In this document: positions 6,946 to 30,000 of the stretch, piece after piece
Layout: the number at the start of each line of letters is the position of its first letter
How positions within the stretch are numbered: the first letter of the stretch is position 1
DNA from: Sutterella sp.
Lineage (GTDB): Bacteria > Pseudomonadota > Gammaproteobacteria > Burkholderiales > Burkholderiaceae_F
Assembly (NCBI GenBank): GCA_020025955.1
Contig: JAHHRF010000011.1
Location: 13,093 to 43,092 of the forward strand
DNA length: 30,000 nucleotides
Direction of reading: 5' to 3'
The notes under the pieces: generated by a model
The model's database searches: none
The model's input: only the letters and a program-made list of their open reading frames with translations
What the model was told of the DNA's origin: nothing
Made by a program: the position numbers and the translations under genes

Positions 6946-6985
6946 CGACCCTAACGAAAAAGAACCGATGAGAGGAGAGGCTACG

Positions 6986-15394: not shown

Positions 15395-15404
15395 CGCACC
15401 AACG

Positions 15405-15437: not shown

Positions 15438-15453
15438 GGTATTGGCGTGCCCG

Positions 15454-16347
15454 TTAGGCGATGCTCGACTCTGGCATGATGTCTTCGAGCGTGAGGTTAT
15501 TGCGGTACGTCGAACGGAATTCGTCAAAGACGCATAACCAATTCATCATGTCCACGACGAGGTTGCTCTGGAAGTACATGTAGGGCGCTTCGGTATAGAG
15601 GATCCCTTCTTTTTTCCAGGTGGTGATGGTCTTGTCGACCGACGCGCGCGACGAACTAATTAAGCGCGAAAACTCTTCACGCAGGAGCGGCAACGGAATG
15701 CGAACCCACTGCGTTTCGTTGGAGTCCGTAATCAAGACCCCCCAGTAGACGGCCCAGCTCAATAAATAGAGCTTGATACGCTCCGTGACCCCGAGGCTTG
15801 AAATCGCTTCTAAGGTGATGGAGTTCGATAAGTAGCACAGCTCGAAATATTGTTGGAGCGTTTGCTGCAGAGCGTCGTCGTTATCCAAAATCTGCTTTAA
15901 GACTTCCTTGTTGCAGACCAGGATTTCCGACTTCGTCAAGGCATAACGCGTCGAGCGGAACGGGTGGCAGAAATAGAAGTCCAACCCACCCCCGAGAATG
16001 CGCCCAGCTGGCGTAATCGACAAGGAGTGTAACTTCGAGCCCGCCCCACTCGTGGGCGTCGCTGTTTGACCAATGATCCCGCGACGAACGTAAATCAAAT
16101 GGTCATAGTGCGCGTACTTTTCCGCCGGGATTTCGCCCCCAGGGCTCTCTAAGGCTGAGGTTAAAAGTTCTCCCGGTTCCAAGTGAATCGTGGTACCAAT
16201 GTTTTTTAAGGTGCGCGCCAAGCAAAACGGCGTGGACGGTGAAATCCACGGCATGACGGGCTCGGAAGGGCCACATAAATTCCACTTGCTGTAACGGTAT
16301 TCACTGAGCACCTTGTCCCACGTGTCAGTGAGTTTTTTCATGGACAT
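15454..16347 (-). CDS. Crp/Fnr-family transcriptional regulator, atypically long (297 aa from the ATG; 307 aa from an upstream TTG at 16377)
   Basis: The central beta-barrel-like region is IHLEPGELL...LIYVRRGIIGQ. The dimerisation helix and C-terminal HTH read GVTERIKLYLLSW...LREEFSRLISSSRASVDKTITTWKKEGILY, which matches the Crp pattern (.TR.E.A..LG.SRETVSR.L..L...G.I). There is no FNR-type N-terminal Cys cluster. Confidence 0.7.
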   Translation of the reverse strand: MSMKKLTDTWDKVLSEYRYSKWNLCGPSEPVMPWISPSTPFCLARTLKNIGTTIHLEPGELLTSALESPGGEIPAEKYAHYDHLIYVRRGIIGQTATPTSGAGSKLHSLSITPAGRILGGGLDFYFCHPFRSTRYALTKSEILVCNKEVLKQILDNDDALQQTLQQYFELCYLSNSITLEAISSLGVTERIKLYLLSWAVYWGVLITDSNETQWVRIPLPLLREEFSRLISSSRASVDKTITTWKKEGILYTEAPYMYFQSNLVVDMMNWLCVFDEFRSTYRNNLTLEDIMPESSIA

Positions 16348-16360
16348 ATCAAACCTCAGT

Positions 16361-16409
16361 GGATCCGTGCAATTCAAGTACGCAGCTGGAAGGACGGATC
16401 CGTGTGCAA
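16361..16409. repeat. Direct repeat GGATCCGTG(TG)CAA, two copies, just upstream of the regulator start codon
   Basis: GGATCCGTGCAA at 16361-16372 and GGATCCGTGTGCAA at 16396-16409. The second copy contains the 10-bp perfect palindrome ACGGATCCGT (16394-16403). Confidence 0.5.
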
Positions 16410-16441
16410 AGAGAAATAAAGGAGGGGGGCGAATTCACGAC

Positions 16442-17083
16442 TTAGAGGGTCGTAAAGACGTCCTCCTTGGCAAAGCGCGACTTGGGTCGCGTTGCGTTCT
16501 TGTCGCCTTCGGATCGGTAGCCCAAGGCCACAACGCAGACCGCCTTACGATTGACGGCCTTTAAATCCAATAATTCATCAAGTTTCTTGAAGTCGACTGC
16601 ACCCATCGTAGTCGAATCAATCCCTAATTGCGGTAAAGCAAAGAGCAAGAACCCCGTGGCAATGGCCACCTGTTCACGCGTCCAGATTTCCCCCTTGTCG
16701 TAACCGCCTTGGAGCATCGCTAATTCGTCATGACGGAATTTGTAGAAGGGAGTTAAGTCGGCACCCGGACGATAACGACCGTCGCGGACTTCTTTTTGGA
16801 AAAGCTTTTCTACCCATTCGTCATCGATCTTGGTTTCGATCGTGCAGACCAAGAGGTGCGAGCAATCACGTGCGCGTTCCACATTGAAGTCAATGATCGC
16901 GGGGATGATTTTTTCTTTTGCTTCACCTTCCGCTAAATAGAAGTGCCAGGGTTGCGCGTTAATGGACGACGGGGCATTACGAAGAATTTCTTTAATGTCT
17001 TCGATTGTCTCTGCGGGAATTTTCTTCGTCGGGTCGTAGTGTTTGGCGGTGTATCGCGTTTGCGAAATCTGAACTGGGTTCAT
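16442..17083 (-). CDS. NfsB/NfnB-type oxygen-insensitive NAD(P)H nitroreductase (FMN-dependent)
   Basis: MNPVQISQTRYTAKHYDPTKKIP...APSSINAQPWHF parallels E. coli NfsB (..RHSTKAFD..KKLT...SPSSTNSQPWHF). The C-terminal NATRPKSRF parallels NATLPKSRL. ATG 17083 is preceded by GGAGGAGA. The 43-codon TTG-initiated extension in the ORF track is rejected. Confidence 0.85.
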   Translation of the reverse strand: MNPVQISQTRYTAKHYDPTKKIPAETIEDIKEILRNAPSSINAQPWHFYLAEGEAKEKIIPAIIDFNVERARDCSHLLVCTIETKIDDEWVEKLFQKEVRDGRYRPGADLTPFYKFRHDELAMLQGGYDKGEIWTREQVAIATGFLLFALPQLGIDSTTMGAVDFKKLDELLDLKAVNRKAVCVVALGYRSEGDKNATRPKSRFAKEDVFTTL

Positions 17084-17332
17084 TTTTTCTTCTCCTCCAG
17101 GACGAGAGCTAGGTTGTAGGTCAGGGATAGAAAGTAAATGAGTGTTCCATTTTCGAGAGTGTGGTCGGTGCTCAATGAGCGCTTGGGGCGCTAGGAATCG
17201 GCTTTCTATCAAGGAAGTCGAGGCTCATTATGACACTTTGTTGTGTAAGCGTGAACCCCTACTGTATTTGTAACGTACCCCCTCGTCTGGCTACGTCTTT
17301 ATGATTGTGTCAAAATCGCTGAATCTTACCGA

Positions 17333-17350
17333 ATTTGATTATAGTCAAAT
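17333..17350. promoter_or_regulatory. Candidate Crp/Fnr-family operator (18-bp dyad) in the divergent nitroreductase/caiT intergenic region
   Basis: ATTTGATTATAGTCAAAT has 8 of 9 symmetric pairs. Its core TTGAT-TATA-GTCAA matches the FNR consensus TTGAT-N4-ATCAA at 9 of 10 positions. It lies about 176 nt upstream of the caiT ATG. Confidence 0.35.
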
Positions 17351-17517
17351 CGTAAGTTCAGAAAAATCAAAAACACGTTAATTTTTTTCTGAAAAATCCA
17401 CTAAGTGGCTTGGGGATTGTTCTGCTGTCACATTCATAAGTAGTACTTAAGATAGCAATGTCTGTTACGGGTGTAACAGCTGTTTACATTTCCAACTATC
17501 TTATTTGGGAAAAAATT

Positions 17518-19038
17518 ATGGGTTCTCTTACTAAGAAGAAGATCACAATCGATCCGAAGGTGTTTTTCCCGCCTTTGGTCGTCGCTGTGATTCTTATCGC
17601 ATTAGTCCTTCGTGACATCGATGCTGCGAACGCCATGATTTCCGCTGCCTTCAACTTCGCGACCACGAAGTTTGGTTGGGCATTCGAGTGGTATATCGTG
17701 GTAACGCTTTGCATTTGGCTTTGGCTGGTGTTTGGTCCTTGGGCCAATCGTCGCCTCGGTGAAGAAGAGCCGGAATTCAGCACGCCTAGCTGGGTCTTCC
17801 TGCTTTTCGCTTCCTCGACCTCCGCAGCTGTGCTGTTCTGGGGTTCGATCGAAGTCTACTACTATGCTTCGACGCCTCCCTTTGGTTTAGCGCCGATGTC
17901 CACTGAAGCCTACGAATTCAGTATGGCTTACTCCTTGTTCCACTGGGGTCCGATCTCCTGGTCGACCTTTGGTTTCTTCACGGTGGCCTTCGCTTACTTC
18001 CTCTTCGTTAAGAAGATTGAAGTGGTGCGTCCGTCCGCTACCTGTGAAGCCGTTATTGGTAAGAAGAATGCCCAGGGCTTCCTCGGCGGCATTATCGATA
18101 ACCTCTACTTGGTCGCTCTCCTCCTCGCGATGAGTACCAGTCTCGGGATGGCTACGCCGCTCGTTACGGAATGTATGCAGTGGTTGTTCGGTATCGAACA
18201 TACCTTAGAACTTGACGCTGCCATCGTGATGGCCTGGATTGTCGTGAACGCTGTTTGCGTTGCGTTCGGTCTCGAAAAGGGCGTGAAGGTTGCTTCTGAC
18301 GTTCGTTCCTACCTCACGTTCTTGATCCTCGCTTGGGTTCTCACGCTCGGTGCCACGACGTTTACCATTAACTACTTCACGGATTCTGTCGGTCTCTTCT
18401 TGAACAACATGTTCCGCATGATGTTCTACACGGATGCCATCGGTAACGGCGGCTTCCCGCAGAGCTGGACGGTCTTCTACTGGGCTTGGTGGGTAATCTT
18501 TACGATCCAGACGTGCTTGTTCTTTGCACGTATCTCTCGTGGTCGTACGGTTCGTCAAGTTTCCGTGGCTGTGGTCGGTGGTGTGACCGCTACGACCTGG
18601 CTCATCTGGCCGATCCTCGGTTCCAACACGGTTCATTTGATGGTTACGAAGGCTTTGGACATCCCCGCTTTGATCGAACAGTATGGTGTTGCACGCGCCA
18701 TTATCGAAACGTGGGCTTCCTTGCCGGCTAGCACCTTAACGATGAGCATCTTCTTCGTCTTGTGCTTCATCGCTACCTTGACGCTCGTTAACAGCTGCTC
18801 CTACACGTTGGCTATGTCCACCTGTAAGGATGTGAGCGGCTACGACGAACCCCCGGTTTGGGTTCGTGTGATGTGGTCCCTCTTAGTGGGCGGTATCGCA
18901 CTCTCCCTCATGGCTCTTGGCGGTATTAAGCCCCTCCAAACGGCCATTATTGTTGGCGGCTGCTTGCTCTTCTTCGTCAACATTGTGATCGCGGTCTCCT
19001 TCTTCAAGGAAGCTAGCGCTAACAAGGAATGGAAGTAA
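17518..19038 (+). CDS. caiT: BCCT-family L-carnitine/gamma-butyrobetaine antiporter
   Basis: 506 aa. It is collinear with E. coli CaiT as I recall it: [113 protein letters not shown] 17518 aligns with the E. coli N-terminus. The track start at 17458 adds 20 unmatched residues. Confidence 0.9.
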
Positions 19039-19084
19039 TTCTGACCAATTGCTTCAACCAACCATCCAAATAAAAGGATCAAAA

Positions 19085-20227
19085 ATGAACTTTGAACTTA
19101 GTGATGAACAACAGTTGCTCGTGGCCGGTGTCCGAGAACTGATGGAAAGTGAAAACTGGGAAACGTACTTTGACGAGTGCGACAAGAACAGCACTTATCC
19201 GATTCGTTGGGTCAAGGCCTTAGCCGATCTCGGTATCGATCGTTTGTTATTGCCGGAAAGCTATGGCGGTTTAGAGTCTGACTTAGTCACGCTCGCTGCC
19301 ATCTGGGAAGAATTGGGCCGCAACGGGGCCCCGACCTATGTTCTTTATCAGCTCCCTGGCGTAACGTCCGTTCTCCATAACGGTACACCCGAACAGATCG
19401 AAAAGATCGTTGCCCTCTTAGGTACGGGCGAGCAGATGTGGAACTCTGCTATTACCGAACCGGGCGCTGGTTCTGACGTCGGCAGCTTGACGACGACGTA
19501 CGAACGCCGCGACGGCAAGATCTACTTGAACGGTCACAAGGCCTTCATCACGAGCTCCTATCATTGCCCCTACTTAGTGGTGATGGCTCGCGACGCTGCC
19601 TCCCCCGATAAGCCGATCTTCTCGGAATTCTTCGTTGACATGTCCAAGGCTGGCATCAAGAAGGAAAAGCTTCCGAAGCTCGGTCTTAAGATGGATAGCT
19701 GCTGCGAAATCTACTTCGAAAACGTTGAGTTGGAAGAAAAGGATTTCTTCGGCAAGGAAGGGATGGGCTTCCAGCGCGTTAAGGACGAGTTCGACGTCGA
19801 ACGCTTCTTGGTGGCTTGCACGAACTACGGTATCGCTTACTGCGCCTTCGAAGACGCTGCTAAGTACGCTAACCAGCGCGAACAGTTCGGCGAAAAGATC
19901 TACCGCTATCAGTTGACCCAGTTGAAGTTCGCCGAAATGGCAACCGCCTTGGCCAACATGCGTCACATGATCTATCAGGCTGCTTGGAAGGCTGATAAGA
20001 CCGGCGTGATGGATACGGGTGATGCCGCCATGTGCAAGTGGTACTGCGCTAACGCTGCCTTCTCCGTGGTCGACAAGGCCATGCAGGTTTTAGGTGGCAT
20101 GGGCGTTGCCGGGGATCACCGTGTGGGCCGCTTCTGGCGTGACCTCCGCGTTGACCGCATCTCTGGTGGTACGGACGAAATGCAGATCTTGACCTTAGGT
20201 CGTGCAGTTCTCAAGAAGTATCGTTAA
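19085..20227 (+). CDS. caiA: Crotonobetainyl-CoA reductase/dehydrogenase (acyl-CoA dehydrogenase family)
   Basis: 380 aa, the same length as E. coli CaiA, with roughly two-thirds identity by eye: [26 protein letters not shown].., [60 protein letters not shown]. An AAGGA RBS lies upstream. Confidence 0.9.
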
Positions 20228-20250
20228 TCGCGTTTAAGTAAAAGATGCAG

Positions 20251-20273
20251 CCCCAGAGCTAGAGACTCTGGGG
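20251..20273 (+). repeat. Intercistronic hairpin between caiA and caiB
   Basis: CCCCAGAG (20251-20258), loop CTAGAGA, then CTCTGGGG (20266-20273). The stem extends by wobble and AU pairs to 20247-20277. There is no T-run. The caiB RBS GAGGAGAG follows. Confidence 0.5.
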
Positions 20274-20290
20274 TTGTAGAGGAGAGAAAA

Positions 20291-21505
20291 ATGAGTTTGA
20301 ACCAAAAGCCGGATTTCGGGCCTCTTCATGGCGTTCGTGTGGTTGTGTCCGCAATGGAAATTGCTGGGCCCTTCCCCGCTCACATGATGGCTGAATGGGG
20401 TGCCGATGTTATCTGGATTGAAAACACCAGCTATCCGGATACCATCCGTGTCCAACGCAACTACTGCGAACTCGCTCGTCGTAACTTTAAGACCATTACG
20501 TTGAACATGTTCGCTGAAGAAGGTCGCGAAGCCTTCTTGCGTTTGATGAAGGACACCGACATCCTTATCGAATCCAGCAAGGGTCCCTCCTGGCCGCGCC
20601 ACGGGATCACTGACGAACTCTTGTGGGGTGCCAACCCTGCTTTGGTGATCGCTCACTTGTCCGGCTACGGCCACTGGGGCGACCCCAACTACATCAACCT
20701 CCCGAGCTATGACTTGATCGCTCAGGCCTTCTCTGGCTACCTCGTTCAGAACGGTACGGTCGAACAGCCTGTTCCCGCCTTCCCGTACGCAGGTGACTAC
20801 TTCGCTGGCTTCACGGTCTTGAGTTCCGCTTTGGCTGCTCTCTATCGTGCTAAGCAGACGGGTCAGGGTGAATCCATCGACGTTTCCATGTACGAAGCCC
20901 TCTTGCGCGTTGGCCAGTACTACATGATGGACTACTTCAACGAAGGCAAGGTCTACCCGCGTTCCAACATGGGTAAGGATCCGTTATGCGTCGGCTGTGG
21001 CGTCTACAAGTGCAAGGACGGCTACATGACGATGGAATTGGTGGGTGCCCGCCAAGTCGCCGGCATGATGAAGGAATTGGGCAAGGACGCCCTCATCGGG
21101 ACGGATGCCTGTCCTGAAGGCTGCCAGTTATTGCTCTTGAGCATGCCGCACGGTACCGAAACGGAAGCCGACATCGACAAGTACTTTGCCGATATGACGT
21201 TGGCTGACGCTGAAGCCGTGATGAGCCGCTTAAAGATTGCTGGCGGTCGCATGATGACGGTTCAGGATCTTGAAAACCATCCGCACTACGTTGCTCGTGA
21301 AGACATCGTGACGTGGGAAGGTTCCAACGGTCGCACCGTTAAGGGCCCGAACATTGTGCCACGCTTCAAGAATCGTCCTGGCCAGATCTGGCGTGGTATG
21401 CCGGATCGCGGCGAACACACCAAGAGCGTTCTCGAGGGCTTAGGCTACAACGATCAACAGATCGCTGAGCTCGAAGAAAAGGGTATTGTATTGTTGAAAA
21501 AGTGA
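20291..21505 (+). CDS. caiB: L-carnitine:gamma-butyrobetainyl-CoA CoA-transferase (family III CoA-transferase)
   Basis: 404 aa, against about 405 in E. coli. PDFGPLHGVRVV.S..EIAGPF, WGADVIWIEN, DTIRVQ.NY, EGREAFL.LM, PAFPYAGDYFAG (the catalytic Asp context AFPY.ADYF.G), GKDP, KGPNI.PRFKN.PGQIWRGMP. Confidence 0.9.
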   Translation: MSLNQKPDFGPLHGVRVVVSAMEIAGPFPAHMMAEWGADVIWIENTSYPDTIRVQRNYCELARRNFKTITLNMFAEEGREAFLRLMKDTDILIESSKGPSWPRHGITDELLWGANPALVIAHLSGYGHWGDPNYINLPSYDLIAQAFSGYLVQNGTVEQPVPAFPYAGDYFAGFTVLSSALAALYRAKQTGQGESIDVSMYEALLRVGQYYMMDYFNEGKVYPRSNMGKDPLCVGCGVYKCKDGYMTMELVGARQVAGMMKELGKDALIGTDACPEGCQLLLLSMPHGTETEADIDKYFADMTLADAEAVMSRLKIAGGRMMTVQDLENHPHYVAREDIVTWEGSNGRTVKGPNIVPRFKNRPGQIWRGMPDRGEHTKSVLEGLGYNDQQIAELEEKGIVLLKK

Positions 21506-21510
21506 TAAAC

Positions 21511-21531
21511 ATATATTATTAGATAATATAT
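21511..21531. repeat. Perfect 21-bp AT-only palindrome in the caiB-caiC spacer
   Basis: ATATATTAT-TAG-ATAATATAT (9-bp arms, 3-bp centre). It starts 6 nt after the caiB TGA-TAA double stop. It sits in an AT-rich stretch of about 60 nt that contrasts with the surrounding coding sequence. Confidence 0.6.
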
Positions 21532-21569
21532 AGATCATCTTTTCACGATCATTTACTTAATGGACCAAT

Positions 21570-21596
21570 GGGGGATTAGGGTTTTTCCCATCCCCC
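21570..21596 (+). repeat. GC-rich hairpin immediately upstream of the caiC ribosome-binding region
   Basis: GGGGGAT (21570-21576) pairs with ATCCCCC (21590-21596). An inner GGG-TTTTT-CCC pairing gives about 10 bp with a 2-nt bulge. No T-run follows. The caiC ATG is 21 nt downstream. Confidence 0.5.
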
Positions 21597-21616
21597 TGAG
21601 GTTCAAGGGACTCTCG

Positions 21617-23215
21617 ATGTTAGATATTGTTGGCAATAAGAACCTTCGTCAGTTTTGGGAAGAACTGGCAAAACAGAACCAGGATAAAATCTGCGTCCAC
21701 GCCCAGGATAAATTAGGGCATACGATTTCCTACACTTACGGAGAACTCAATAAAGAAATTAACCGTGCGGCTAATTTGTTTATTGCGAGCGGTATCGCTA
21801 AGGGCGACCGCGTCATGGTTCAAATGACCAATACCGTGTCCTTTCTTAAGGTCTGGTTTGGTTTAGCGAAGATTGGGGCCGTGATGGTGACGGTGAACAC
21901 CGGCTACATCACCAATGAGTTTGACCACTTGGTAAAAACGGCTGATTCCACTCGCTTGATTTGTGATGCAGCCTTCCTTTCTCACTGGCGCGCCTACGAA
22001 CGTAGTGCTAAGCCGTTTGAAAAGATTTTTGTCACCAACATTGAAGAACATGCCGACTTGGGCGAAGGCGTCATCTTTGAAGAAGCCTTACGTGACCAGC
22101 CGGAAGAATTGACGGAAGTTCGTCCCATCGACAGCGAAGACGTGATGGAAATCCTCTTCACCTCTGGGACGACCTCGGCTCCGAAGGGGGCACAGATTAC
22201 GCATGCGAACTTGATCTGGGCAGGGCTCTTTACCTCCGCCCAGGCTCGCATGAACCGTGAAGATGTGTTGCTCACGACGATGCCTAACTTCCATGTGGAC
22301 TTCCAGTGCAATGCCTGCATGCCGACCTTGACGGTTGGGGGGACGTTGGTGATGTTGCAGCGCTTCAGCGCTCATCACTTCTGGGAATCGGTGTGCTTGT
22401 ATCGCGCCACGATCATTCAGGCGGTTCCCATGATCCTTCGCACGATTATGTTGCAGCCGGTGAAGGCTTGGGAACGTAATCACTGCGTACGTGATGTGCT
22501 CTACGCGTTGCCGCTCTCGAAGACTGAATACCAAGCGTTTAAGGATCGCTTTGGCGTCGATCTGTTGAATTCTTACGGGATGACCGAAACCTTAGTGGGT
22601 TGTATTACGACCCTGCCCGAAGAAGATCGTCGCTTCCCCTCCGTGGGTCGTCCGTACTTTGGTTACGAAGCCAAGTTAGTCGACGACAACGGGGACGAAG
22701 TCCCCACCGGTGAAATCGGTACCTTCATGGTCCGTGGGATCCCGGGGCGCACCCTCTTTAAGGGGTATGTAAACAATGAAAAAGCCACCCGTGAGACCTT
22801 AGTCGGGGATGGCTGGATGATGACCAAGGATAAAGGTCGCATCGACGAGGATGGTGTTTTCTGGTTCGTGGACCGTTCCATCGACATCATCAAACGCAGT
22901 GGCGAAAACATTTCCAGTTCGGAAGTTGAACGCGTACTGGTATCGCATCCCAAGATTGCCGAAGCGGCGGTCATTGGTGTGCCTGACCCGATCCGTGACC
23001 AGGAAGTCAAGGCATATGTGCGAATCAAGGATGGCGAGTCGATTACCAAGAAGGAAGTGATTGAACACTGTGCTCGCAGCTTAGCTGAATTCAAGTTGCC
23101 GGTATACGTGGAGTTCCGTCAAGGGTTCCAACATACCTGCACTGGAAAGATCGTCAAAGAGCTTCTCAAGGCTGAGAAGAATGACGAAACAAAACGTCTT
23201 GTAATCAACCGATAA
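21617..23215 (+). CDS. caiC: Crotonobetaine/carnitine-CoA ligase (adenylate-forming enzyme)
   Basis: MLDIVGNKNLRQFWEELA parallels E. coli CaiC MDIIGGQHLRQMWDDLA. AMP-binding motif ILFTSGTTSAPKGAQITH. WFGLAKIGA.MV, NSYGMTET, GW..T.D.G..DE.G.F.FVDR, IKR.GENIS. The 19-codon upstream extension in the ORF track runs through the hairpin and is rejected. Confidence 0.88.
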   Translation: MLDIVGNKNLRQFWEELAKQNQDKICVHAQDKLGHTISYTYGELNKEINRAANLFIASGIAKGDRVMVQMTNTVSFLKVWFGLAKIGAVMVTVNTGYITNEFDHLVKTADSTRLICDAAFLSHWRAYERSAKPFEKIFVTNIEEHADLGEGVIFEEALRDQPEELTEVRPIDSEDVMEILFTSGTTSAPKGAQITHANLIWAGLFTSAQARMNREDVLLTTMPNFHVDFQCNACMPTLTVGGTLVMLQRFSAHHFWESVCLYRATIIQAVPMILRTIMLQPVKAWERNHCVRDVLYALPLSKTEYQAFKDRFGVDLLNSYGMTETLVGCITTLPEEDRRFPSVGRPYFGYEAKLVDDNGDEVPTGEIGTFMVRGIPGRTLFKGYVNNEKATRETLVGDGWMMTKDKGRIDEDGVFWFVDRSIDIIKRSGENISSSEVERVLVSHPKIAEAAVIGVPDPIRDQEVKAYVRIKDGESITKKEVIEHCARSLAEFKLPVYVEFRQGFQHTCTGKIVKELLKAEKNDETKRLVINR

Positions 23216-23243
23216 GACGTAATTTTCAAAAGGAGAGAGAGTT

Positions 23244-24098
23244 ATGGCTCTGAAACTTGATATGGTCGGCAAGACCTACGGTCCTTTCATTTACAACTAC
23301 AACTTCCGCGATCTCATCTTGTTCGCATTGGGTTGTGGCGCTGGCTACGACGGCAAGACTGACCTGAAGTATGTCTACGAAAAGGATCAGAAGGTTTTAC
23401 CGATGATTGCCGCGTGCCCGATCGTGGCCAGTGAAGTGACCAAAACGATCGACTGGGGTTTCGAATGGGGTGGCAGCCTTCACTGGGGCTTCGACTTCCG
23501 CTTGATGAAGCCGCTTAGCAAGGTCGAAGGTACCTTCGAAACGATGGTTACGCTCAAGGGCTTGTTCGACCGTGGCGAAGGCCGTGGTACGTTGGCTCAG
23601 CACTATGGCGAAACGCGCGACAAGGAAACTGGCGAACTTCTGTTCACGAACGAAAGCTGGGACTGCGCTATTTTCGACGGCGGCTGGGGTGGCCCGAAGG
23701 CTCCGAAGGACATCGTTGAAATTCCCGAAACGGAACCGGATTGGATCTGCGAACAGGAAATCCCGTTGAACCAGGCCATCATCTATCGCCTCTCGGGTGA
23801 CTACCATCCGCAGCATATCGATTGGGAATACGCTCAGAAGTTCGGTTATCCGAAGCCCAACCTCCACGCTGTGTCGACCGCTGGTACCGCCTTGCGTCAC
23901 ATCATCAACGCTGTGTTGGATGGTGACTCCGATCGCCTCACGCGCTTCAAGACCCGTATCACGAAGCCGTTATTCCCGGGGTGCCGTGTTCGCATCCGTA
24001 TCTGGAAGTTCGGCGAAGGCTGCGTGCACTTCAACGTTGAAGATGCGGACAAGCCGGGTCACTTCTACTTGAACTTCGGCTTGGTCGAGTACAAGTAA
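23244..24098 (+). CDS. MaoC-like double hot-dog (hydratase-2 type, R-specific) enoyl-CoA hydratase/dehydratase, occupying the position of caiD/caiE
   Basis: 284 aa. The C-terminal half carries the hydratase-2 motif YRLSGDYHPQHIDWEYA (nt 23784-23834). The consensus is [YF]-x-[LVIG]-[STGC]-G-D-x-N-P-[LIV]-H-x5-[AS], so the catalytic D and H are kept but N is H and [LIV] is Q. The N-terminal YNYNFRDLILFALGCGAG and the Gly-rich linker DGGWGGPKAP resemble the MFE-2 hydratase domain layout. A strong AAAGGAGAGAG RBS precedes the gene. Confidence 0.8.
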   Translation: MALKLDMVGKTYGPFIYNYNFRDLILFALGCGAGYDGKTDLKYVYEKDQKVLPMIAACPIVASEVTKTIDWGFEWGGSLHWGFDFRLMKPLSKVEGTFETMVTLKGLFDRGEGRGTLAQHYGETRDKETGELLFTNESWDCAIFDGGWGGPKAPKDIVEIPETEPDWICEQEIPLNQAIIYRLSGDYHPQHIDWEYAQKFGYPKPNLHAVSTAGTALRHIINAVLDGDSDRLTRFKTRITKPLFPGCRVRIRIWKFGEGCVHFNVEDADKPGHFYLNFGLVEYK

Positions 24099-24112
24099 TC
24101 TTTTTTAAAGCC

Positions 24113-24149
24113 TTGATGGCTAGTGGTTTGACCAACGACTAGCCATCAA
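24113..24149 (+). repeat. Perfect 12-bp-stem hairpin at the cai-half / fix-half junction
   Basis: TTGATGGCTAGT (24113-24124), a 13-nt loop, then ACTAGCCATCAA (24138-24149). No T-tract follows. The fixA ATG is 22 nt downstream. Confidence 0.55.
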
Positions 24150-24170
24150 CTCAAACCCTCTGGAACTACT

Positions 24171-24944
24171 ATGAAAATCTTTTCTGCATTTAAGTTTGTT
24201 GAAGAAGAACAGGACATTGTTGTTAACGCCGATCGCACCCTTGACTTAAGCAAGGCTACGGTGAAGATTAGCCCCTTTGATTTGAATGCAATCGAAGCGG
24301 CTGTTCAGGCAAAGTCTTTAGTTGAAGGTGCTGAAATCACCGCCATTTCCGTTGGTGGTAAGCGCTTGGCTAACCCGAAGGCACGAAAAGATGTGCTTTC
24401 CCGCGGCCCCGACAACTTGTTGTTGGTTCAGGACGATCTCTTTGAAGATCTCCGTCCGAACGAAACCGCTAAGGTTTTATCCGGTGTTCTGAGCATTCGT
24501 GGGTTTGATTTATTGATCTGCGGTAACGGTTCGGCTGACATCTATGCCCAGCAGACGGGCTTGTTGTTAGGCGAAGCCCTCAGCATCCCGACCGTGAACG
24601 CTGTGAGCCGCATCGTTAGCCTCGAAGAAAAGAAGATTGTTGTTGAACGTAGCTTGGAAGACGAAGTTGAAACCTTGGAAATTCAGCTTCCGGCCGTGAT
24701 CTGCGTGACCGCCGACATCAACGAGCCCCAGATTCCTGCTATGCGTGCCATTTTGGCTGCCGCCAAGAAGCCCGTTGAAGTCATGAGCGCTTCCGACTTC
24801 GCTTGCACGTTAGAAAACCGCCCCGTGGCTGTTGAAAGCATCCTTGCTCAGCCCCAGAAGGACCGTGCTCAAGTGGTTATTGAAGGTGAAGATGATGCTT
24901 CGATTGAAGCCTTCGCCGCCCACCTTCGTAAGGCATTGGTCTGA
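24171..24944 (+). CDS. fixA: Electron-transfer flavoprotein beta subunit, FixA type
   Basis: 257 aa. It parallels E. coli FixA: KISP.DLNAIEAA, SVGGK.L.N.K.RKDVLSRGPD, CG.GS.D.YAQQ.GLL.GE.L.IP.VN.VS.I, LPAV..V..DIN.PQIP.M.AIL.AAKKPV. Confidence 0.9.
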   Translation: MKIFSAFKFVEEEQDIVVNADRTLDLSKATVKISPFDLNAIEAAVQAKSLVEGAEITAISVGGKRLANPKARKDVLSRGPDNLLLVQDDLFEDLRPNETAKVLSGVLSIRGFDLLICGNGSADIYAQQTGLLLGEALSIPTVNAVSRIVSLEEKKIVVERSLEDEVETLEIQLPAVICVTADINEPQIPAMRAILAAAKKPVEVMSASDFACTLENRPVAVESILAQPQKDRAQVVIEGEDDASIEAFAAHLRKALV

Positions 24945-24970
24945 TAAAAGCCAGAATTCAGGAGAAAAAA

Positions 24971-25900
24971 ATGAGCAAGTTTGTGAAAGTTTGGACCTTT
25001 AATGATTTGGCCGCTCGTGAGGGTGAAGTCATCGCCGCCGGCCGTCAGTTTGGTGTGGAAGTTCGTTCCATCGTTGTGGATGCCGCCAAGGCTAATGATG
25101 TCATCGGTCTCGGTGCCGACAAGGCTGTCGTCGTGAAGGGTCTCCCGGAAGGCGCCATGCTCGAAGATTGCGCTGCCACGATCGCTAAGGCCATCACGGC
25201 TGACGAATTGCCCGCCGTCTTGGTGATGCCCGCCTCCGTGCGCTGCAAGGCCATCGCCGCTAAGGTCGCTAAGTTAACCAACGCTGGTATCGTCAATGAA
25301 GTGACCGAAATCAACGACGACACGTTCACCCACTTGGTTTACGGTGGTTTGGCGTTAAGCGCTGAAAAGGTTGAAAGCACGGTTGCCATTATTACGATGG
25401 CTCCGGGTGCTTACGCTGCTCTCGAAGCGGATGCTTCCCGCTCGGGCGATGTGATTGACGTTGACTTCGTGGCTCCCGCTGTTGGCGGTGTGACGCGTGT
25501 CGGCGTGACGAAGAAAGAAGCTGGTTCCGTGGACTTGGGTCGTGCCAAGCGCGTCGTTGGCGTGGGTCGCGGCTTCTCTGAAAAGGAACAGCTCCAGTTG
25601 GCCGAAGGCTTTGCCAAGGCTATGGGCGCTGAACTCGGTTGCTCCCGTCCGATCGCTGAAGGCGAACAGTGGATGGAACGCGAACGTTACATCGGTGTCT
25701 CGGGCGTCATGCTCAAGCCTGAAGTCTACGTTGCCGTTGGTGTGTCCGGTCAGATCCAGCACATGGTGGGTGTGAATACGGCTAACACGATCTTCGCGAT
25801 CAACAAGGACAAGAAGGCTCCGGTCTTCAAGTATGCCGACTACGGTATCGTCGGTGACCTCAAGGTCATCCTTCCGAAGCTCCAGGCGCTTTTAGCTTAA
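24971..25900 (+). CDS. fixB: Electron-transfer flavoprotein alpha subunit, FixB type
   Basis: 309 aa, with the ETF-alpha FAD signature VYVAVGVSGQIQHMVGVNTANTIFAINKDKKAPVF. Confidence 0.9.
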   Translation: MSKFVKVWTFNDLAAREGEVIAAGRQFGVEVRSIVVDAAKANDVIGLGADKAVVVKGLPEGAMLEDCAATIAKAITADELPAVLVMPASVRCKAIAAKVAKLTNAGIVNEVTEINDDTFTHLVYGGLALSAEKVESTVAIITMAPGAYAALEADASRSGDVIDVDFVAPAVGGVTRVGVTKKEAGSVDLGRAKRVVGVGRGFSEKEQLQLAEGFAKAMGAELGCSRPIAEGEQWMERERYIGVSGVMLKPEVYVAVGVSGQIQHMVGVNTANTIFAINKDKKAPVFKYADYGIVGDLKVILPKLQALLA

Positions 25901-25922
25901 TTAAAAGCGAGAGATAAGACTC

Positions 25923-25966
25923 AACTAGTCCGACCTCAAAGGATAACTCGTGGTCGGACTAGTTTT
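25923..25966 (+). terminator. Strong hairpin with a short T-run between fixB and fixC (candidate partial terminator/attenuator)
   Basis: A perfect 13-bp stem, AACTAGTCCGACC (25923-25935) with GGTCGGACTAGTT (25952-25964), and a 16-nt loop. The stem runs into TTTT (25963-25966), then GGATTCTTTT. Confidence 0.45.
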
Positions 25967-26009
25967 GGATTCTTTTGTCGAACCCCATAGAACTTGATAA
26001 GGAGATGAC

Positions 26010-27308
26010 ATGTCGGAAGAGGACGCCTTTGACGCAGTCATTATTGGTGCTGGTCCGGCTGGCGCCACCGCTGCCTACGTTTTAGCGAAGGGCGGCGCGA
26101 ATGTTCTGGTGATCGAACGCGGTAACTACGCGGGCGCCAAGAACATGACGGGGGGCCGTTTATATGGTCACAGTCTGGAAAAAGTGATCCCTGATTTCGC
26201 AGACGAAGCCCCGATTGAACGTATCGTGACGACCGAAAAAGTGTCGTTCATGGAAGCCCAGAGTGGTACCACGATGGATTACCGCTCGGCTGAACCCTGT
26301 ACGAAGAATGAAAAGTCTTACACCGTCTTGCGTGGTCCCTTTGACCAGTGGTTAGCGGGTAAGGCAGAAGAAGTTGGCGCGCAGATCATTTATGGCATTC
26401 GCGTTGACAAGATCGTCAAGGACGACAATGGCAAGGTCGTTGGTATTGAAGCCGACGGCGATGTCATTGACGCCAAATGCGTGATCATCGCCGAAGGGGC
26501 GAACAGCATCTTGACGGAACAGTTGGGTCTCGCGACCCGTCCGATGGATCCGTCCACGATGGCCGTCGGCGCTAAGGAATTGATCGAATTCCCCAGCGGC
26601 GAAGTTGAAAAGCGTTTCGGCTTAGCTAAGGGCGAAGGCGTGGCTTGGTTGTTTGCCGGTACGCCGTCCAACGGTTTGATGGGGGGCGGGTTCCTCTATA
26701 CGAACAAGGACTCGGTCTCGTTAGGCGTGGTCTGTGGCTTAGCTCACATTGGCGACAGCAACAAGAGCGTCCCCAAGATGCTCGAAGACTTCAAGAACCA
26801 TCCCGTTGTTAAGCCGTTGATCGAAGGCGGCAAGATGGTTGAGTATTCCGGTCACATGGTGCCGGAAGCAGGGATCAACATGTGTCCGAAGCTTTACGCC
26901 GATGGCGTGATGGTGATCGGTGACGCTGCTGGTTTCTGTATCAACCAGGGCTTTACGGTTCGCGGTCTTGACTTAGCCATTGGCTCGGGCGACTACGCAG
27001 CTCAGGCTGTGTTGGAAGCTTTGAAGCGTAATGACTTCTCCGCCAATGCTTTGCGTGTCTATCAGACGCGTCTTGAACAGAGTTTCGTGATGCAAGACTT
27101 GCAGCTCTACAAGGATCTGCCGGCCTTCTTCGAAAACGATCGTCTTTTCAACGCTTATCCCAAGCTCATGAACGGCATTATGCGTGACGTGTTTGTGATC
27201 GGTGAAAAGCCCTCTGAACCCTTACGCAAGAAGCTTTTCAAGCGTTTGAAGGAAGTTGGGTTCATCAACATGCTCAAGGATGCCTACAACGGAGGTAAAG
27301 CGATATGA
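26010..27308 (+). CDS. fixC: FAD-dependent ETF-quinone-oxidoreductase-like flavoprotein, FixC type
   Basis: 432 aa. N-terminal dinucleotide fold FDAVIIGAGPAGATAAYVLAKGG, with GDAAGF later. The gene order is fixB-fixC-fixX. An AAGGAG RBS lies upstream. Confidence 0.9.
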   Translation: MSEEDAFDAVIIGAGPAGATAAYVLAKGGANVLVIERGNYAGAKNMTGGRLYGHSLEKVIPDFADEAPIERIVTTEKVSFMEAQSGTTMDYRSAEPCTKNEKSYTVLRGPFDQWLAGKAEEVGAQIIYGIRVDKIVKDDNGKVVGIEADGDVIDAKCVIIAEGANSILTEQLGLATRPMDPSTMAVGAKELIEFPSGEVEKRFGLAKGEGVAWLFAGTPSNGLMGGGFLYTNKDSVSLGVVCGLAHIGDSNKSVPKMLEDFKNHPVVKPLIEGGKMVEYSGHMVPEAGINMCPKLYADGVMVIGDAAGFCINQGFTVRGLDLAIGSGDYAAQAVLEALKRNDFSANALRVYQTRLEQSFVMQDLQLYKDLPAFFENDRLFNAYPKLMNGIMRDVFVIGEKPSEPLRKKLFKRLKEVGFINMLKDAYNGGKAI

Positions 27309-27598
27309 CGGAATACATGAATGTTGACGAGAAGCTTGGTGTTAACAAGTTCTACGTTGACGAAGAAAACGCCCACATTGTGCTCAAGGCGGCCGACAAA
27401 ATCGATCGCAACGAGTTCATGAAGTTAGTCAAAGCCTGCCCCGCGGGTTTGTACTCCATCGATGAAGAAGGGAACTACAAATTCGACTACGCCGGCTGTT
27501 TAGAATGCGGGACCTGTCGCTTCTTGTGCGGCAAGACCTTGTTCGAAAAGTGGGAATTACCGCGAGGGACATTCGGTATCGAATATCGCAACGGTTAA
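27305..27598 (+). CDS. fixX: Ferredoxin-like protein FixX
   Basis: 97 aa. NVDEKLGVNKFYVDEE..HIV.KA, VKACPAGLY, FDYAGCLECGTCR and YPRGTFG-like ELPRGTFGIEYRNG closely parallel E. coli FixX. The ATGA overlap with the fixC stop suggests translational coupling. Confidence 0.9.
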   Translation: MTEYMNVDEKLGVNKFYVDEENAHIVLKAADKIDRNEFMKLVKACPAGLYSIDEEGNYKFDYAGCLECGTCRFLCGKTLFEKWELPRGTFGIEYRNG

Positions 27599-27608
27599 AA
27601 CAATGATC

Positions 27609-27647
27609 GGGGTTAGCCTTTTGCTCCTACGGGCTAACCCCTTTTTT
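27609..27647 (+). terminator. Canonical Rho-independent terminator after fixX
   Basis: GGGGTTAGCC (27609-27618), a 13-nt loop, GGCTAACCCC (27632-27641), then TTTTTT (27642-27647). Confidence 0.8.
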
Positions 27648-27676
27648 CTGATCTCATCGACTTTCAAGGAAAAAAT

Positions 27677-28978
27677 ATGTCAACGTTAGCTGCATTTGAC
27701 AATCTAAAAGTAAGTGGTAGGCACCGCCTGATTACGTTATTTGCCAGTGGCGCCTCATTTATTGACGGCTATATCCTCATCATCATTGGGGTGGCCCTTG
27801 AAAGCTTGATGCAAGAATTCCAGTTAGACGAATTTGGTGTGGGCTTAGTGACGGTCAGTACCTTCGTGGGTCTGGGCGTAGGCACGTTCATCTTCGGCTA
27901 CATTGGCGACAAGATTGGTCGCAAAAAAATCTTAAGCTACAACATTCTCTTGTTGGCGCTTTGTTCGGTGTTGTCTGCGTTTGTGACGACCCCGACGGAA
28001 TTGATTATTGCGCGCTTTTTCATTGGTGTTTTGATCGGGGGTGACTACCCGATTGCAACCAGTATGGTTGCTGAATTCTCCCCAATTAAAAACCGTGCTT
28101 GGTCCATGGGGACGATTGCTGCCGTTTGGTATGTGGGCGGTATCTTTGCAACCGTCGTGGGCTACTACTGCTACGACTTCGCAGACAGCTGGCGTTGGAT
28201 GTTAGCCAGTGCGGTGATCCCCTGCATGCTCGTTTTCTTTGGTCGTATGGGTATTCCAGAATCGCCCCGTTGGTTGCTCCTTCAGGGTCGTGTGGAAGAA
28301 GCGCGTGCCATCTTTAAGGAATTTGGCGCGGACGTGAGCGAAGAAGTCTTCCAGCGCTTTGCTAACGAAAAGCCGAAGAGCCCGGACGTGAAGAAGATCT
28401 TCAAGGGCGACAACCTTCGCAACCTCTTATTCGTGGCCACGATTTGGATCTGCCAGGTCGTTCCGATGTTCACGGTCTACATGTTCGGTACCCAGATCAT
28501 GGCGGACTACTCCAACGTCACCCCGCAGACGGCCATGATTTGCAACACCGTGATCAGTATTGCCTTCTTTACGGGCTGCTTCCCCGCTATGTGGTTAGTG
28601 GGTGTGATTGGTCGCCGTACGGTTTGCGTCTATAGCTTCTTGATCATGACGGTGGCCATGGGCTTACTGTATGTCTTCACCGACAACTTGATCGTGCTCT
28701 TACTGTGCTTGTTGGTTTATGCCTTAGCTGCTGGCGGTCCTGGCATCTTGCAGTGGCTCTACCCGAATGAATTATTTTCCACGGACATTCGTGCTTCCTC
28801 GGTTGGGGTGGCGATGAGTATCACCCGTGTTGCCACGATCTTCTCCACCTTCTTCTTGTATCCGATGTTGGTGGCCTACGGGAGTGAAGCCGTGGTGATC
28901 GGTGGGATCATCATCTCCTTCATCGGTTTGGTGGTCAGTGTGTTCTGGGCCCCGGAAACCAACGGGATCTCGCTCTAA
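27677..28978 (+). CDS. yaaU: MFS transporter of the sugar-porter-like subfamily, YaaU-like
   Basis: 433 aa and about 12 TM segments. Motifs GDKIGRKK (loop 2-3), PESPRWL and PETNG. The N-terminus FDNLKVSGRHRLI..GASFIDGYILIIIGVALE resembles E. coli YaaU as I recall it. It also sits immediately after fixX, as yaaU does in E. coli. The symbol is tentative. Confidence 0.7.
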   Translation: MSTLAAFDNLKVSGRHRLITLFASGASFIDGYILIIIGVALESLMQEFQLDEFGVGLVTVSTFVGLGVGTFIFGYIGDKIGRKKILSYNILLLALCSVLSAFVTTPTELIIARFFIGVLIGGDYPIATSMVAEFSPIKNRAWSMGTIAAVWYVGGIFATVVGYYCYDFADSWRWMLASAVIPCMLVFFGRMGIPESPRWLLLQGRVEEARAIFKEFGADVSEEVFQRFANEKPKSPDVKKIFKGDNLRNLLFVATIWICQVVPMFTVYMFGTQIMADYSNVTPQTAMICNTVISIAFFTGCFPAMWLVGVIGRRTVCVYSFLIMTVAMGLLYVFTDNLIVLLLCLLVYALAAGGPGILQWLYPNELFSTDIRASSVGVAMSITRVATIFSTFFLYPMLVAYGSEAVVIGGIIISFIGLVVSVFWAPETNGISL

Positions 28979-29037
28979 TTCTTCGCCGTTAAGACGAAAT
29001 ACGTTGTGCTTTAAAAAAGCTATGGAGTTTTATCGAA

Positions 29038-30000
29038 ATGAGTCAAGTCAATAATCGCTTAGATGTTCCGGCCCTCTTGAAGGGGGATATGAAAGCTGTT
29101 TTAGATTTCCAGCTTTCCCAACCGACGGAAGAAAATGACGGTAGCTTTGCCGCCATGCGCGAAGCCTACATCAAAGAACGTCGTTTCTGGAACGAGGGCG
29201 GTCCCGAGATGCTTCGTAAGGAAGATGTATCGGTGGCAACCCGCCACGGCGCCGTGACGGCTCGTATCTACCAGGCGGTTGAAAAGCCGGTTTCGACCTT
29301 GTACTTCATCCATGGGGGTGGCTTCCTCGTGGGCAACAACGATACGCACGATCGCATCATGCGTATTCTGGCGGAAAAGACGGGGGCAACCGTGATTGGG
29401 GTGGATTACACCTTGTCGCCGGAAGCCCGTCATCCGCAGCCCATTGAAGAAGTGGCCGACGTGGTGGCGTATTTCCACGCTCATCAAGCCGAGCACGGTA
29501 TTGATGCGAGCAAGATTAGCTTTGCGGGGGATTCCGCAGGGGCTTATCTCTCGATGGCGAGCGTTCTCTGGATTCGCGATAAAGCGGTGGCTTGCGGTGA
29601 AATCGTGTCCGTCTTGCTCTACTACGGTCTCTTTGGGTTACGCGACGGTCGCTCCCGCCAGCTCTACGGTGGTACGTGGGATTGGTTGCGTCCCGAAGAC
29701 TTAAAGAGCTACGAAGACGCATACTTAGCGGATGCTTCGCAGATTGAAGACCCGTACTACTGCTTGTTTAACTGCGATTTAAAGAAGGCTGTTCCGCCCG
29801 CCTTCGTGATTAGCGCCGAGTACGATCCCTTATCGGACGACAGCGTGGCGTTAGCTCAGTTACTCAAGGCCTACGGTCATGAAGTTCACTTTGAAGAGTA
29901 TCCCGGTGTGCTCCATGCCTTCCTTCACTTCTCGCGCATGATGCCGGAAGCCATGAAGGCCTTGGAAGAGGGGGCTGCCTTCTTGAAGGCTCACCTCTAA
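29038..30000 (+). CDS. aes: Acetyl esterase of the hormone-sensitive-lipase (HSL) family, Aes-like
   Basis: 320 aa. HGGGF oxyanion motif (H at 29311) and GDSAG nucleophile (Ser codon 29533-29535). Long collinear matches to E. coli Aes from memory: DTHDRIMR.LA, IG.DYTLSPEAR.PQ.IEE, LW.RDK, YGL.GLRD, PYYCLFN.DL, AE.DPL.DDS, YPG.LHAFLH.SRMM. The stop TAA is at 29998-30000, exactly the window end. Confidence 0.88.
   Translation: MSQVNNRLDVPALLKGDMKAVLDFQLSQPTEENDGSFAAMREAYIKERRFWNEGGPEMLRKEDVSVATRHGAVTARIYQAVEKPVSTLYFIHGGGFLVGNNDTHDRIMRILAEKTGATVIGVDYTLSPEARHPQPIEEVADVVAYFHAHQAEHGIDASKISFAGDSAGAYLSMASVLWIRDKAVACGEIVSVLLYYGLFGLRDGRSRQLYGGTWDWLRPEDLKSYEDAYLADASQIEDPYYCLFNCDLKKAVPPAFVISAEYDPLSDDSVALAQLLKAYGHEVHFEEYPGVLHAFLHFSRMMPEAMKALEEGAAFLKAHL

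Follow-up and report, generated by a model that had tools for sequence, protein, structure and literature searches.

A MaoC-like double hot-dog protein in the caiD position of a Sutterella carnitine locus, a candidate carnitinyl-CoA dehydratase of widespread occurrence

In Escherichia coli the position immediately downstream of caiC is occupied by caiD, which encodes the crotonase-type carnitinyl-coenzyme A (CoA) dehydratase, and then by caiE, and a carnitine locus of a Sutterella sp. in which neither gene can be detected raises the question of which protein, if any, removes water from carnitinyl-CoA. The locus lies within a 30,000-nt stretch of contig JAHHRF010000011.1 (the window, by which the whole of this stretch is meant), where the slot after caiC is filled by one gene encoding a 284-aa MaoC-like protein. 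An earlier note, made from the letters of the window, had described this protein as a hydratase-2 enzyme that replaces both CaiD and CaiE. We infer that it is probably a hydratase-2-type carnitinyl-CoA dehydratase/crotonobetainyl-CoA hydratase and a non-homologous functional analogue of CaiD (probability roughly 0.65). Substrate, reaction and all pathway steps are deduced, the activity from genomic context and from a distribution complementary to that of CaiD. The gene and the features within and before it are as follows.

23244..24098, plus strand: maoC-like gene, ATG start, 284 aa, double hot-dog, candidate carnitinyl-CoA dehydratase
23230..23236, plus strand: ribosome-binding site AAGGAGA, 7 nt 5′ of the maoC-like ATG, read from the sequence
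23292..23657, plus strand: N-terminal non-catalytic hot-dog half, residues 17-138 (PF22622 MFE-2_hydrat-2_N, E 2e-11)
23724..24017, plus strand: C-terminal catalytic MaoC hot-dog half, residues 161-258 (PF01575 MaoC_dehydratas, E 1e-14)
23784..23834, plus strand: variant hydratase-2 motif YRLSGDYHPQHIDWEYA, residues 181-197, with the Asp186/His191 dyad retained and the changes Asn to His188, Leu to Gln190 and Pro to Trp194
23868..23870, plus strand: codon of Ala209, which aligns with human Gly-533, the 'third catalytic residue' of hydratase 2 (ILHG in 1s9c, NLHA here)

The ATG is located 28 nt downstream of the caiC stop codon by direct reading, and the open reading frame (ORF) is a real gene rather than a chance frame, because it has 247 homologues and an exact match in three public assemblies; the exact-match contigs likewise carry maoC after caiC. 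Both the PF22622 and the PF01575 match exceed the Pfam gathering scores, no NCBIfam model matches the protein, and no ECH_1 domain was found in it with Pfam, genuine CaiD proteins bearing PF00378. A sequence search of the PDB returned the Mycobacterium tuberculosis MaoC structure 3KHP and the human MFE-2 hydratase 2 structure 1S9C over the full length (E ~1e-32). The AlphaFold (AF2) model, built from an input alignment of 114 sequences, has a predicted local distance difference test (pLDDT) value of 94 and a predicted template modelling score (pTM) of 0.92, and the structures ranked highest by Foldseek are 1S9C (template modelling score, TM, 0.88) and 3KHP (0.87), followed by 7MKU, 3KH8, 1PN2 and 1PN4. 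The C-terminal half aligns with the catalytic domain of 1s9c, 3khp and 7mku, placing Asp186 and His191 on human D510 and H515. The assignment to the hydratase-2/MaoC double hot-dog enzymes made in the earlier note is therefore borne out by the Pfam domains and the match to 1s9c, as is its statement that the window lacks a crotonase or hexapeptide-repeat gene: none was found by Pfam among the 23 ORFs read as genes and three long antisense ORFs, searching the window by tblastn with CaiD and CaiE of E. coli gave short chance matches only, even at E<=10, and CaiD, CaiE and CaiF are absent from the window and from the 2 kb beyond it.

The motif departs from the canonical one in the manner that had been claimed, with Asp186 and His191 kept, His188 in place of Asn and Gln190 in place of a hydrophobic residue. 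The protein consequently differs from the strict hydratase-2 motif, given as Y-R-L-S-G-D-x-N-x-L-H-I-D-P-x-x-A (PMC3823801), by the substitutions of His for Asn, Gln for Leu (the canonical Leu/Ile/Val position) and Trp for Pro. A further change had been overlooked: Ala209 stands where the catalytic triad of hydratase 2 has a conserved Gly, and in the MaoC protein of Phytophthora capsici the corresponding G217A substitution, at the Gly-533 position, abolished activity (PMC3823801). The homologues are mostly full length, with identities of 44-94% among the 120 listed, and the variant residues are conserved along with the catalytic ones. Residue 186 is Asp in 112/114 family members (Asp, catalytic, in canonical hydratase 2) and residue 191 is His in 113/113 (His, catalytic), while residue 188 is His in 113/114 (canonical Asn), residue 190 is Gln in 110/114 (canonical Leu/Ile/Val) and residue 194 is Trp in 113/113 (canonical Pro); residue 209, Gly in canonical hydratase 2, is Ala in 98, Gly in 15 and Ser in one. 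The pattern YRL[SNQ]GDxHPQH[IVA]DW is matched by 80/80 genomic copies, and YRLSGD-x-H-P-Q-H-I-D-W is, as judged from these alignments, the signature of a tight family. Four other residues, E137, W139, D140 and D145, replace Q, S, L and S of human MFE-2 and are family-invariant; they might form a pocket for the trimethylammonium group, D145 lying just outside the PF22622 domain. In public annotations, members of the family bear generic names such as 'MaoC/PaaZ C-terminal domain-containing protein' or 'acyl dehydratase' or, in many NCBI records, the misleading name of a bile-acid '...cholest-24-enoyl-CoA hydratase'.

The linkage of this family to caiC is universal among the loci surveyed. One genome per species was scanned, which gave 232 stretches encoding a relative, and the 80 loci retained were surveyed over +/-10 kb by tblastn with the window proteins and with E. 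coli CaiD, CaiE, CaiF and YaaU. In all 80, from at least six phyla, the maoC-like gene follows caiC, a recurrence wider than the earlier note had guessed. The two genes are separated by a median of 31 bp, many Actinomycetota having a spacing of 11 bp or an overlap, and larger gaps occur solely where another gene intervenes. The remainder of the cluster is reshuffled between phyla: fixABCX may precede or follow, caiT may be there or missing, the esterase gene stands upstream or downstream, and the major facilitator superfamily (MFS) gene changes position as well. The retained loci include those of Sutterellaceae, with a MaoC protein 92-94% identical to that of the window, of Desulfovibrionales, Endozoicomonas, Shewanella, Ferrimonas, Geopsychrobacteraceae and Campylobacterales, of Bacillota (Schinkia, Neobacillus, Desulfitobacterium, Syntrophomonas and Sporomusa), of Actinomycetota (Actinomyces, Schaalia, Trueperella, Arcanobacterium, Oerskovia, Sanguibacter and Propionibacteriaceae) and of one Dormiibacterota metagenome-assembled genome (MAG). 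A Coriobacteriales contig has the same caiC-maoC-MFS core, and Enterobacillus (Enterobacterales) shows the divergent layout of E. coli, yaaU-fixXCBA / caiTABC, with maoC alone in the place of E. coli caiD-caiE. The same major groups appear in each of the neighbour-joining trees made for MaoC, for CaiA and for CaiC. Two apparent CaiC::MaoC fusions were rejected, that in locus L062 being a frame-extension artefact of separate ORFs and protein P0121 (443 aa) containing frameshift garbage.

With respect to CaiD the loci fall into three states. Most lineages, Enterobacillus included, have the MaoC-like gene only, and no crotonase-like match at E<1e-5 was found in 65 of the 80 loci. Both enzymes are encoded in 15 Shewanella and Ferrimonas loci, in the order caiC-caiD-maoC-caiE, where CaiD shares 83-89% identity with its E. 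coli counterpart and the MaoC motif is intact. CaiD alone is found in E. coli, Shewanella algae, Hafnia and Budvicia; look-ups seeded on CaiD gave caiTABC-caiD-caiE-esterase in S. algae and caiTABC-caiD in Hafnia and Budvicia, with no MaoC in these three. The genus Shewanella holds two of the three states. The pattern fits non-orthologous displacement of the carnitinyl-CoA dehydratase via a redundant intermediate, and outside a subset of the Gammaproteobacteria it is usually the hot-dog family that accompanies caiC; all named CaiD orthologues among the top 120 matches belong to that class. Recent transfer of caiD on its own into Shewanella could be ruled out, the whole operon of the both-enzyme Shewanella and Ferrimonas loci being E. 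coli-like (CaiA 78-82%, CaiB 81-83% and CaiE 68-76% identity). The proposed replacement of CaiD thus stands for the 65 loci without a linked crotonase and not for the ∼15 that hold both enzymes, and the proposal that CaiE was replaced together with it as a unit has to be given up: caiE is independent of both dehydratases, since Endozoicomonas has it with MaoC-only loci whereas Hafnia and Budvicia lack it in their caiD loci. A scan of metagenome contigs seeded on CaiA, intended as a census independent of the dehydratase, was swamped by E. coli and contained no MaoC relative in its 80 retained loci, all of Escherichia type (96-100% CaiA identity), and tblastn of CaiA against a plasmid collection found only E. 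coli and Proteus chromosomes filed as plasmids. Two proteins, P0165 (428 aa) and P0168 (451 aa), join ECH_1 (CaiD) and hexapeptide (CaiE) regions in one polypeptide; at 93-99% identity to CaiD of E. coli, they may represent either genuine fusions of CaiD with CaiE or gene calls that were merged.

The CaiB proteins of these loci also differ. Similarity to E. coli CaiB follows the type of dehydratase and not phylogeny (loci L005, L014, L016 and L017 compared with L082 and with the window, 20291-21505), reaching 81-83% in caiD loci; in Enterobacillus, whose CaiA (85%) and CaiT (79%) are the closest to those of E. coli, it is only 62%. In a neighbour-joining tree, the CaiB proteins of the window, of Sutterella and of Enterobacillus group with second caiB copies that accompany a paralogue of the MaoC-like protein lacking the catalytic Asp. 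This paralogue forms a second, deep-branching clade with 46-51% identity to the window protein, and copies were located as follows.

L007:9108-9956: Asp-less paralogue
L010:9108-9956: Asp-less paralogue
L028:7492-8340: Asp-less paralogue
L030:12198-13046: Asp-less paralogue
L085:10001-10852: Asp-less paralogue

Their motif is FRL[LI]G[C/N/I]YH[PH]LH[VA]DW, in which the catalytic Asp has become Cys, Asn or Ile; His208 has become Met, and His188, His191 and Trp194 are conserved. In Endozoicomonas the paralogue is encoded directly upstream of the primary maoC, and in Campylobacterales and a second Ferrimonas locus (fixABCX-MFS-caiB′-maoC′-BCCT, the last gene belonging to the betaine-choline-carnitine transporter family) it adjoins a second caiB. 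It may be a non-catalytic partner or may carry out different chemistry.

In the pathway proposed for the locus in the window, the MFS transporter and the esterase would supply carnitine from acylcarnitines and CaiT would exchange carnitine for gamma-butyrobetaine. CaiC would prime a pool of betaine-CoA, from which CaiB would move CoA onto L-carnitine. The MaoC-like enzyme would then remove water from carnitinyl-CoA via the Asp186/His191 dyad on its C-terminal overhanging segment, the N-terminal hot-dog being predicted to be non-catalytic and to contribute to the pocket for the trimethylammonium head group. The dehydration step would otherwise be missing, since there is no linked crotonase and yet CaiA, CaiB, CaiC and Fix are complete. 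Which stereochemical course such a reaction would take is less straightforward. Replacement of CH3 by CH2N+(CH3)3 swaps the Cahn-Ingold-Prelog (CIP) priorities at C3, so that the geometry of L-(R)-carnitinyl-CoA corresponds to that of L-(S)-3-hydroxyacyl-CoA, the crotonase product, while canonical hydratase 2 yields the D-(R) geometry from trans-enoyl-CoA; this argument, already made in the earlier note, is correct from first principles and accords with established enzymology. If L-carnitinyl-CoA is the substrate, one of two courses has to apply. Facial selectivity may be inverted, with His188, Gln190, Trp194 and Ala209 as candidate determinants and His188, which like His191 persists in the Asp-less paralogues, possibly a new catalytic residue. 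Alternatively, the enzyme might keep the canonical face and form cis-(Z)-crotonobetainyl-CoA, the geometry of which would be erased by CaiA, a route considered possible by mirror logic because crotonase converts cis-2-enoyl-CoA to the D-3-hydroxy product. That the family is an L-carnitinyl-CoA-specific hot-dog dehydratase with a stereochemical course unlike that of every characterized hydratase-2/MaoC enzyme is put forward tentatively, at somewhat below even odds. A corollary, if this were true, is that anaerobic carnitine reduction would have the MaoC type, and not the CaiD type, as its ancestral and most widespread form.

A number of points weigh against the assignment as a carnitinyl-CoA dehydratase. 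What is known of the family comes from sequence, predicted structure and genomic context, and canonical hydratase-2 stereochemistry predicts D- and not L-carnitinyl-CoA. The Asn of the motif is His throughout the family, and 98/114 members have Ala for the Gly of the triad, a change that impairs canonical MaoC (PMC3823801). The presence of caiD and maoC side by side with intact motifs in ∼15 Shewanella and Ferrimonas species argues against pure redundancy, an unlinked crotonase could be encoded elsewhere in genomes of which +/-10 kb were in view, and searches seeded on MaoC or CaiD place loci with neither enzyme outside the view. A phenotype hint in favor of the assignment comes from a Scoary2 study of Propionibacterium freudenreichii (Genome Biol 2024, PMC11007987), in which a cluster with caiABC, an enoyl-CoA hydratase, an MFS transporter and fixABCX, without caiD or caiT, was described and the 'enoyl-CoA hydratase' was remarked on as a protein that 'might fill' the caiD gap: the caiD-less strains in which the cluster is intact show higher amounts of carnitine and of putative gamma-butyrobetaine, and the adjacent MFS/alpha-beta-hydrolase pair was linked statistically to depletion of acylcarnitines as well as to raised carnitine and putative gamma-butyrobetaine (PMC11007987). 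The order of that cluster is that of the Actinomycetota loci, Propionibacteriaceae MAGs L070 and L074 included. The P. freudenreichii hydratase is a putative member of the family, a further point on the negative side, as neither a homology search from a Propionibacteriaceae member nor a look-up by cluster name returned a P. freudenreichii name.

Canonical stereochemistry might also simply have been kept, the enzyme interconverting trans-crotonobetainyl-CoA and D-carnitinyl-CoA, either for the use of D-carnitine or as one half of a two-hydratase epimerase with an L-specific crotonase (CaiD or an unlinked paralogue). Precedent exists in the 3-hydroxyacyl-CoA epimerase activity that arises from hydratase 1 and hydratase 2 acting together, and a carnitine racemase activity of enterobacteria is reportedly discussed in older literature; the fold and dyad of the MaoC-like protein are of the (R)-specific hydratase type, and the 15 caiC-caiD-maoC-caiE loci of Shewanella and Ferrimonas, with each motif intact, also favor this reading. 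This is nevertheless unlikely, since in the 65 of 80 loci without a linked crotonase, and in Enterobacillus and Coriobacteriales, the operon would be complete except for a dehydratase acting on L-carnitine, the natural substrate, the scarcity of D-carnitine in nature makes conservation over at least six phyla hard to explain, and S. algae, Hafnia, Budvicia and E. coli manage without a MaoC-like enzyme. Nor is it probable that the substrate is a different CoA ester, whether another 3-hydroxy or enoyl quaternary-amine ester or an enoyl- or hydroxyacyl-CoA derived from the acyl chains of acylcarnitines, the locus then reducing crotonobetaine or another betaine without a carnitinyl-CoA dehydratase. 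The departures from the canonical motif at H188, Q190, W194 and Ala209 would suit such a substrate, as would the acylcarnitine input implied by the esterase and MFS genes, the distinct CaiB subtypes, whose similarity to E. coli CaiB follows the presence of caiD (62% in Enterobacillus vs 81% in Shewanella), and the module of second caiB and paralogue in some genomes. It has to be set against these that CaiT, CaiA, CaiB and CaiC exceed the cutoffs of carnitine-specific NCBIfam equivalog models, that the locus contains no beta-oxidation genes and that the tight, universal linkage to caiC indicates a betaine-CoA pool.

Very little probability attaches to a protein that is not an enzyme of the pathway at all and instead serves CaiC or CaiB as a non-catalytic or regulatory partner, such as a CoA-ester-binding scaffold or a thioesterase-like editing factor. 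Such a role could account for Ala at the oxyanion Gly position, for the constant adjacency to caiC and for the paralogue clade that has lost the catalytic Asp (C/N/I) and is still conserved beside a second caiB, but purifying selection on catalysis predicts just the retention of Asp186 (112/114) and His191 (113/113) that is seen, no genuine CaiC::MaoC fusion exists, and the dehydration step would be left without an enzyme in most loci. A carnitinyl-CoA dehydratase of hydratase-2 type accordingly remains the preferred reading of the MaoC-like protein.

The genes that surround it in the window form a complete caiTABC and fixABCX set, together with a transporter, an esterase, a candidate regulator and a hairpin. 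The NCBIfam models for CaiT, CaiA, CaiB and CaiC are the carnitine-specific equivalogs, and that for FixA is a subfamily model.

17458..19038, plus strand: caiT, L-carnitine/gamma-butyrobetaine antiporter (BCCT family), NF002887, 792.5 bits (cutoff 541)
19049..20227, plus strand: caiA, crotonobetainyl-CoA reductase (acyl-CoA dehydrogenase family), NF002885, 697.6 bits (cutoff 540)
20291..21505, plus strand: caiB, carnitine CoA-transferase (family III), NF002914, 595.5 bits (cutoff 413)
21560..23215, plus strand: caiC, crotonobetaine/carnitine-CoA ligase, NF005947, 687.7 bits (cutoff 651)
24113..24149, plus strand: hairpin in the maoC-fixA spacer, 12-bp perfect stem, -22.1 kcal/mol, z = -4.3, 0/200 shuffles as stable
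24171..27598, plus strand: fixABCX, electron-transfer flavoprotein (ETF) system supplying CaiA (Pfam ETF, ETF_alpha, DAO/ETFQO)
24171-24944, plus strand: fixA, NCBIfam 344 bits (cutoff 219)
24971-25900, plus strand: fixB, 318 bits, under the model cutoff
26010-27308, plus strand: fixC, 601 bits with the FixC model (cutoff 610) and 580 bits with PRK10015 (cutoff 466)
27305-27598, plus strand: fixX, 130 bits, under the model cutoff
27677..28978, plus strand: YaaU-like MFS transporter, 47% identity to E. coli YaaU, whose gene likewise follows fixX
29038..30000, plus strand: Abhydrolase_3 esterase, candidate acylcarnitine hydrolase (PF07859, 3e-51)
15454..16377, minus strand: Crp-like helix-turn-helix (HTH) protein, candidate locus regulator (weak PF13545 match)

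FixA, FixB, FixC and FixX are 44-61% identical to their E. coli counterparts, all four being present. The caiA ORF of the window begins with TTG and encodes 392 aa, public gene calls on identical contigs (L086) give 380 aa, and translation probably begins ∼12 codons downstream of that TTG. The pair of MFS and esterase genes is common to most related loci, the caiD-type locus of S. algae included, which suggests a conserved front end for acylcarnitine uptake and hydrolysis and a candidate role for E. coli yaaU. Lineage-specific additions are seen in Actinomycetaceae, where a metallo-beta-lactamase-fold gene and an unannotated 248-aa ORF stand between the MFS gene and fixA (e.g., Trueperella L053:12288-13708), and in Desulfobaculum, where a sodium:solute symporter gene (L004:13516-15138) lies between fixB and fixC.

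Upstream of the cai genes the window contains a purine-biosynthesis operon, a MatE gene, aspS, an esterase gene, the Crp-like HTH gene and a nitroreductase gene (16442-17212, minus strand), the last two being oriented divergently from caiT. The Crp-like HTH protein may be the local regulator of the locus, because the tblastn survey found no CaiF homologue in any non-E. coli locus; Sutterella MAGs L001 and L003 carry homologues of 60-64% identity beside their copies of the locus. In the exact-match public contigs the locus ends after the esterase gene and is followed by a HaeIII-type restriction-modification system. The guanine-plus-cytosine (GC) content of the cai-fix block (17000-30000) is ∼0.52 (range 0.47-0.56) and that of the purine operon (1-10700) ∼0.59, and the lower value together with the flanking restriction-modification system is compatible with horizontal acquisition. 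The hairpin between maoC and fixA was ruled out as an intrinsic terminator, as no T-tract follows it; its sequence is not conserved in Sutterella L001 and L003, which have GC-rich repeats of their own at that site, and it may be an element of mRNA processing or stability, or an operator between the cai and fix halves. A scan for promoters and terminators over 15300-30000 gave the counts expected from shuffled sequence, and none of the sites falls in the spacers on either side of maoC.

L-carnitine's anaerobic conversion to gamma-butyrobetaine is the first step taken by microbes in the route from red meat to trimethylamine N-oxide (TMAO) that is linked to cardiovascular disease, and the cluster definitions by which it is detected take caiTABCDE of E. 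coli as their model, for example in gutSMASH-style rules and in the gamma-BMGC database (PMC11857547). Should the hot-dog enzyme be the dehydratase, then most carnitine reducers outside the enterobacteria would use a cluster that lacks caiD and often caiT or caiE and is invisible to such rules, and the gut and oral taxa affected would include Sutterellaceae, Actinomyces/Schaalia, Trueperella, Coriobacteriales and Bacillota. Surveys of gut gamma-butyrobetaine and TMAO production keyed to caiTABCDE would then miss producers among the Sutterellaceae, Actinomycetaceae, Coriobacteriales and Bacillota. A natural experiment in analogous enzymes would also be at hand, one chiral substrate being served by two unrelated folds whose active sites are mirror images, and genomes holding both caiD and maoC exist for its genetics.

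In the full-text literature no paper linking MaoC or hot-dog enzymes to carnitine was found apart from the Scoary2 remark (PMC11007987), which did not identify the fold, the family, the breadth or the stereochemical issue of the hydratase and offered no biochemistry on it; a Shewanella genome paper annotates 'caiABCDE' and leaves the extra gene unmentioned. The earlier note, which was aware of no such description for cai-type loci, needs that remark as a qualification. Among known proteins the closest functional parallel is E. coli CaiD, with which the MaoC-like protein shares the slot immediately after caiC and the same caiTABC and fixABCX pathway, and with which it would share an equivalent reaction and shows a complementary distribution across genomes. 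It differs in having a double hot-dog instead of the spiral crotonase fold (ECH_1), with no sequence similarity, in a canonical stereochemical outcome that for its fold is the opposite one, and in its spread over at least six phyla, whereas named CaiD orthologues were seen only in Gammaproteobacteria. The mechanism of CaiD is of the Glu-based crotonase type, in contrast to the Asp/His dyad of the MaoC-like protein.

The structural parallels are the hydratase 2/MaoC proteins (1S9C, the Candida tropicalis structures 1PN2/1PN4, 3KHP of M. tuberculosis, and PhaJ), which have the same two-domain double hot-dog, single C-terminal active site and Asp/His dyad on the overhanging segment; TM scores against hydratase 2/MaoC structures are 0.83-0.88 at 27-31% identity. 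Unlike these, the family carries its His188, Gln190, Trp194 and Ala209 changes throughout and the acidic or aromatic residues E137, W139, D140 and D145, and it is found in the context of carnitine respiration, not beta-oxidation or polyhydroxyalkanoate (PHA) synthesis, with a short cationic betaine-CoA of opposite C3 geometry as its presumed substrate. MaoC-fold precedents for small, charged, non-fatty-acyl CoA esters are provided by mesaconyl-CoA hydratase and by the itaconyl-CoA hydratase PaIch (8HUC/8KHG), although the PaIch-type enzymes, which Foldseek lists among the structural neighbours, are distant (TM 0.65-0.68, 16-17% identity), act on anionic dicarboxylate substrates and occur in another genomic context. 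The hot-dog variant of the cai locus is thus a real, widespread and essentially undescribed variant of a known pathway, not a new kind of system.

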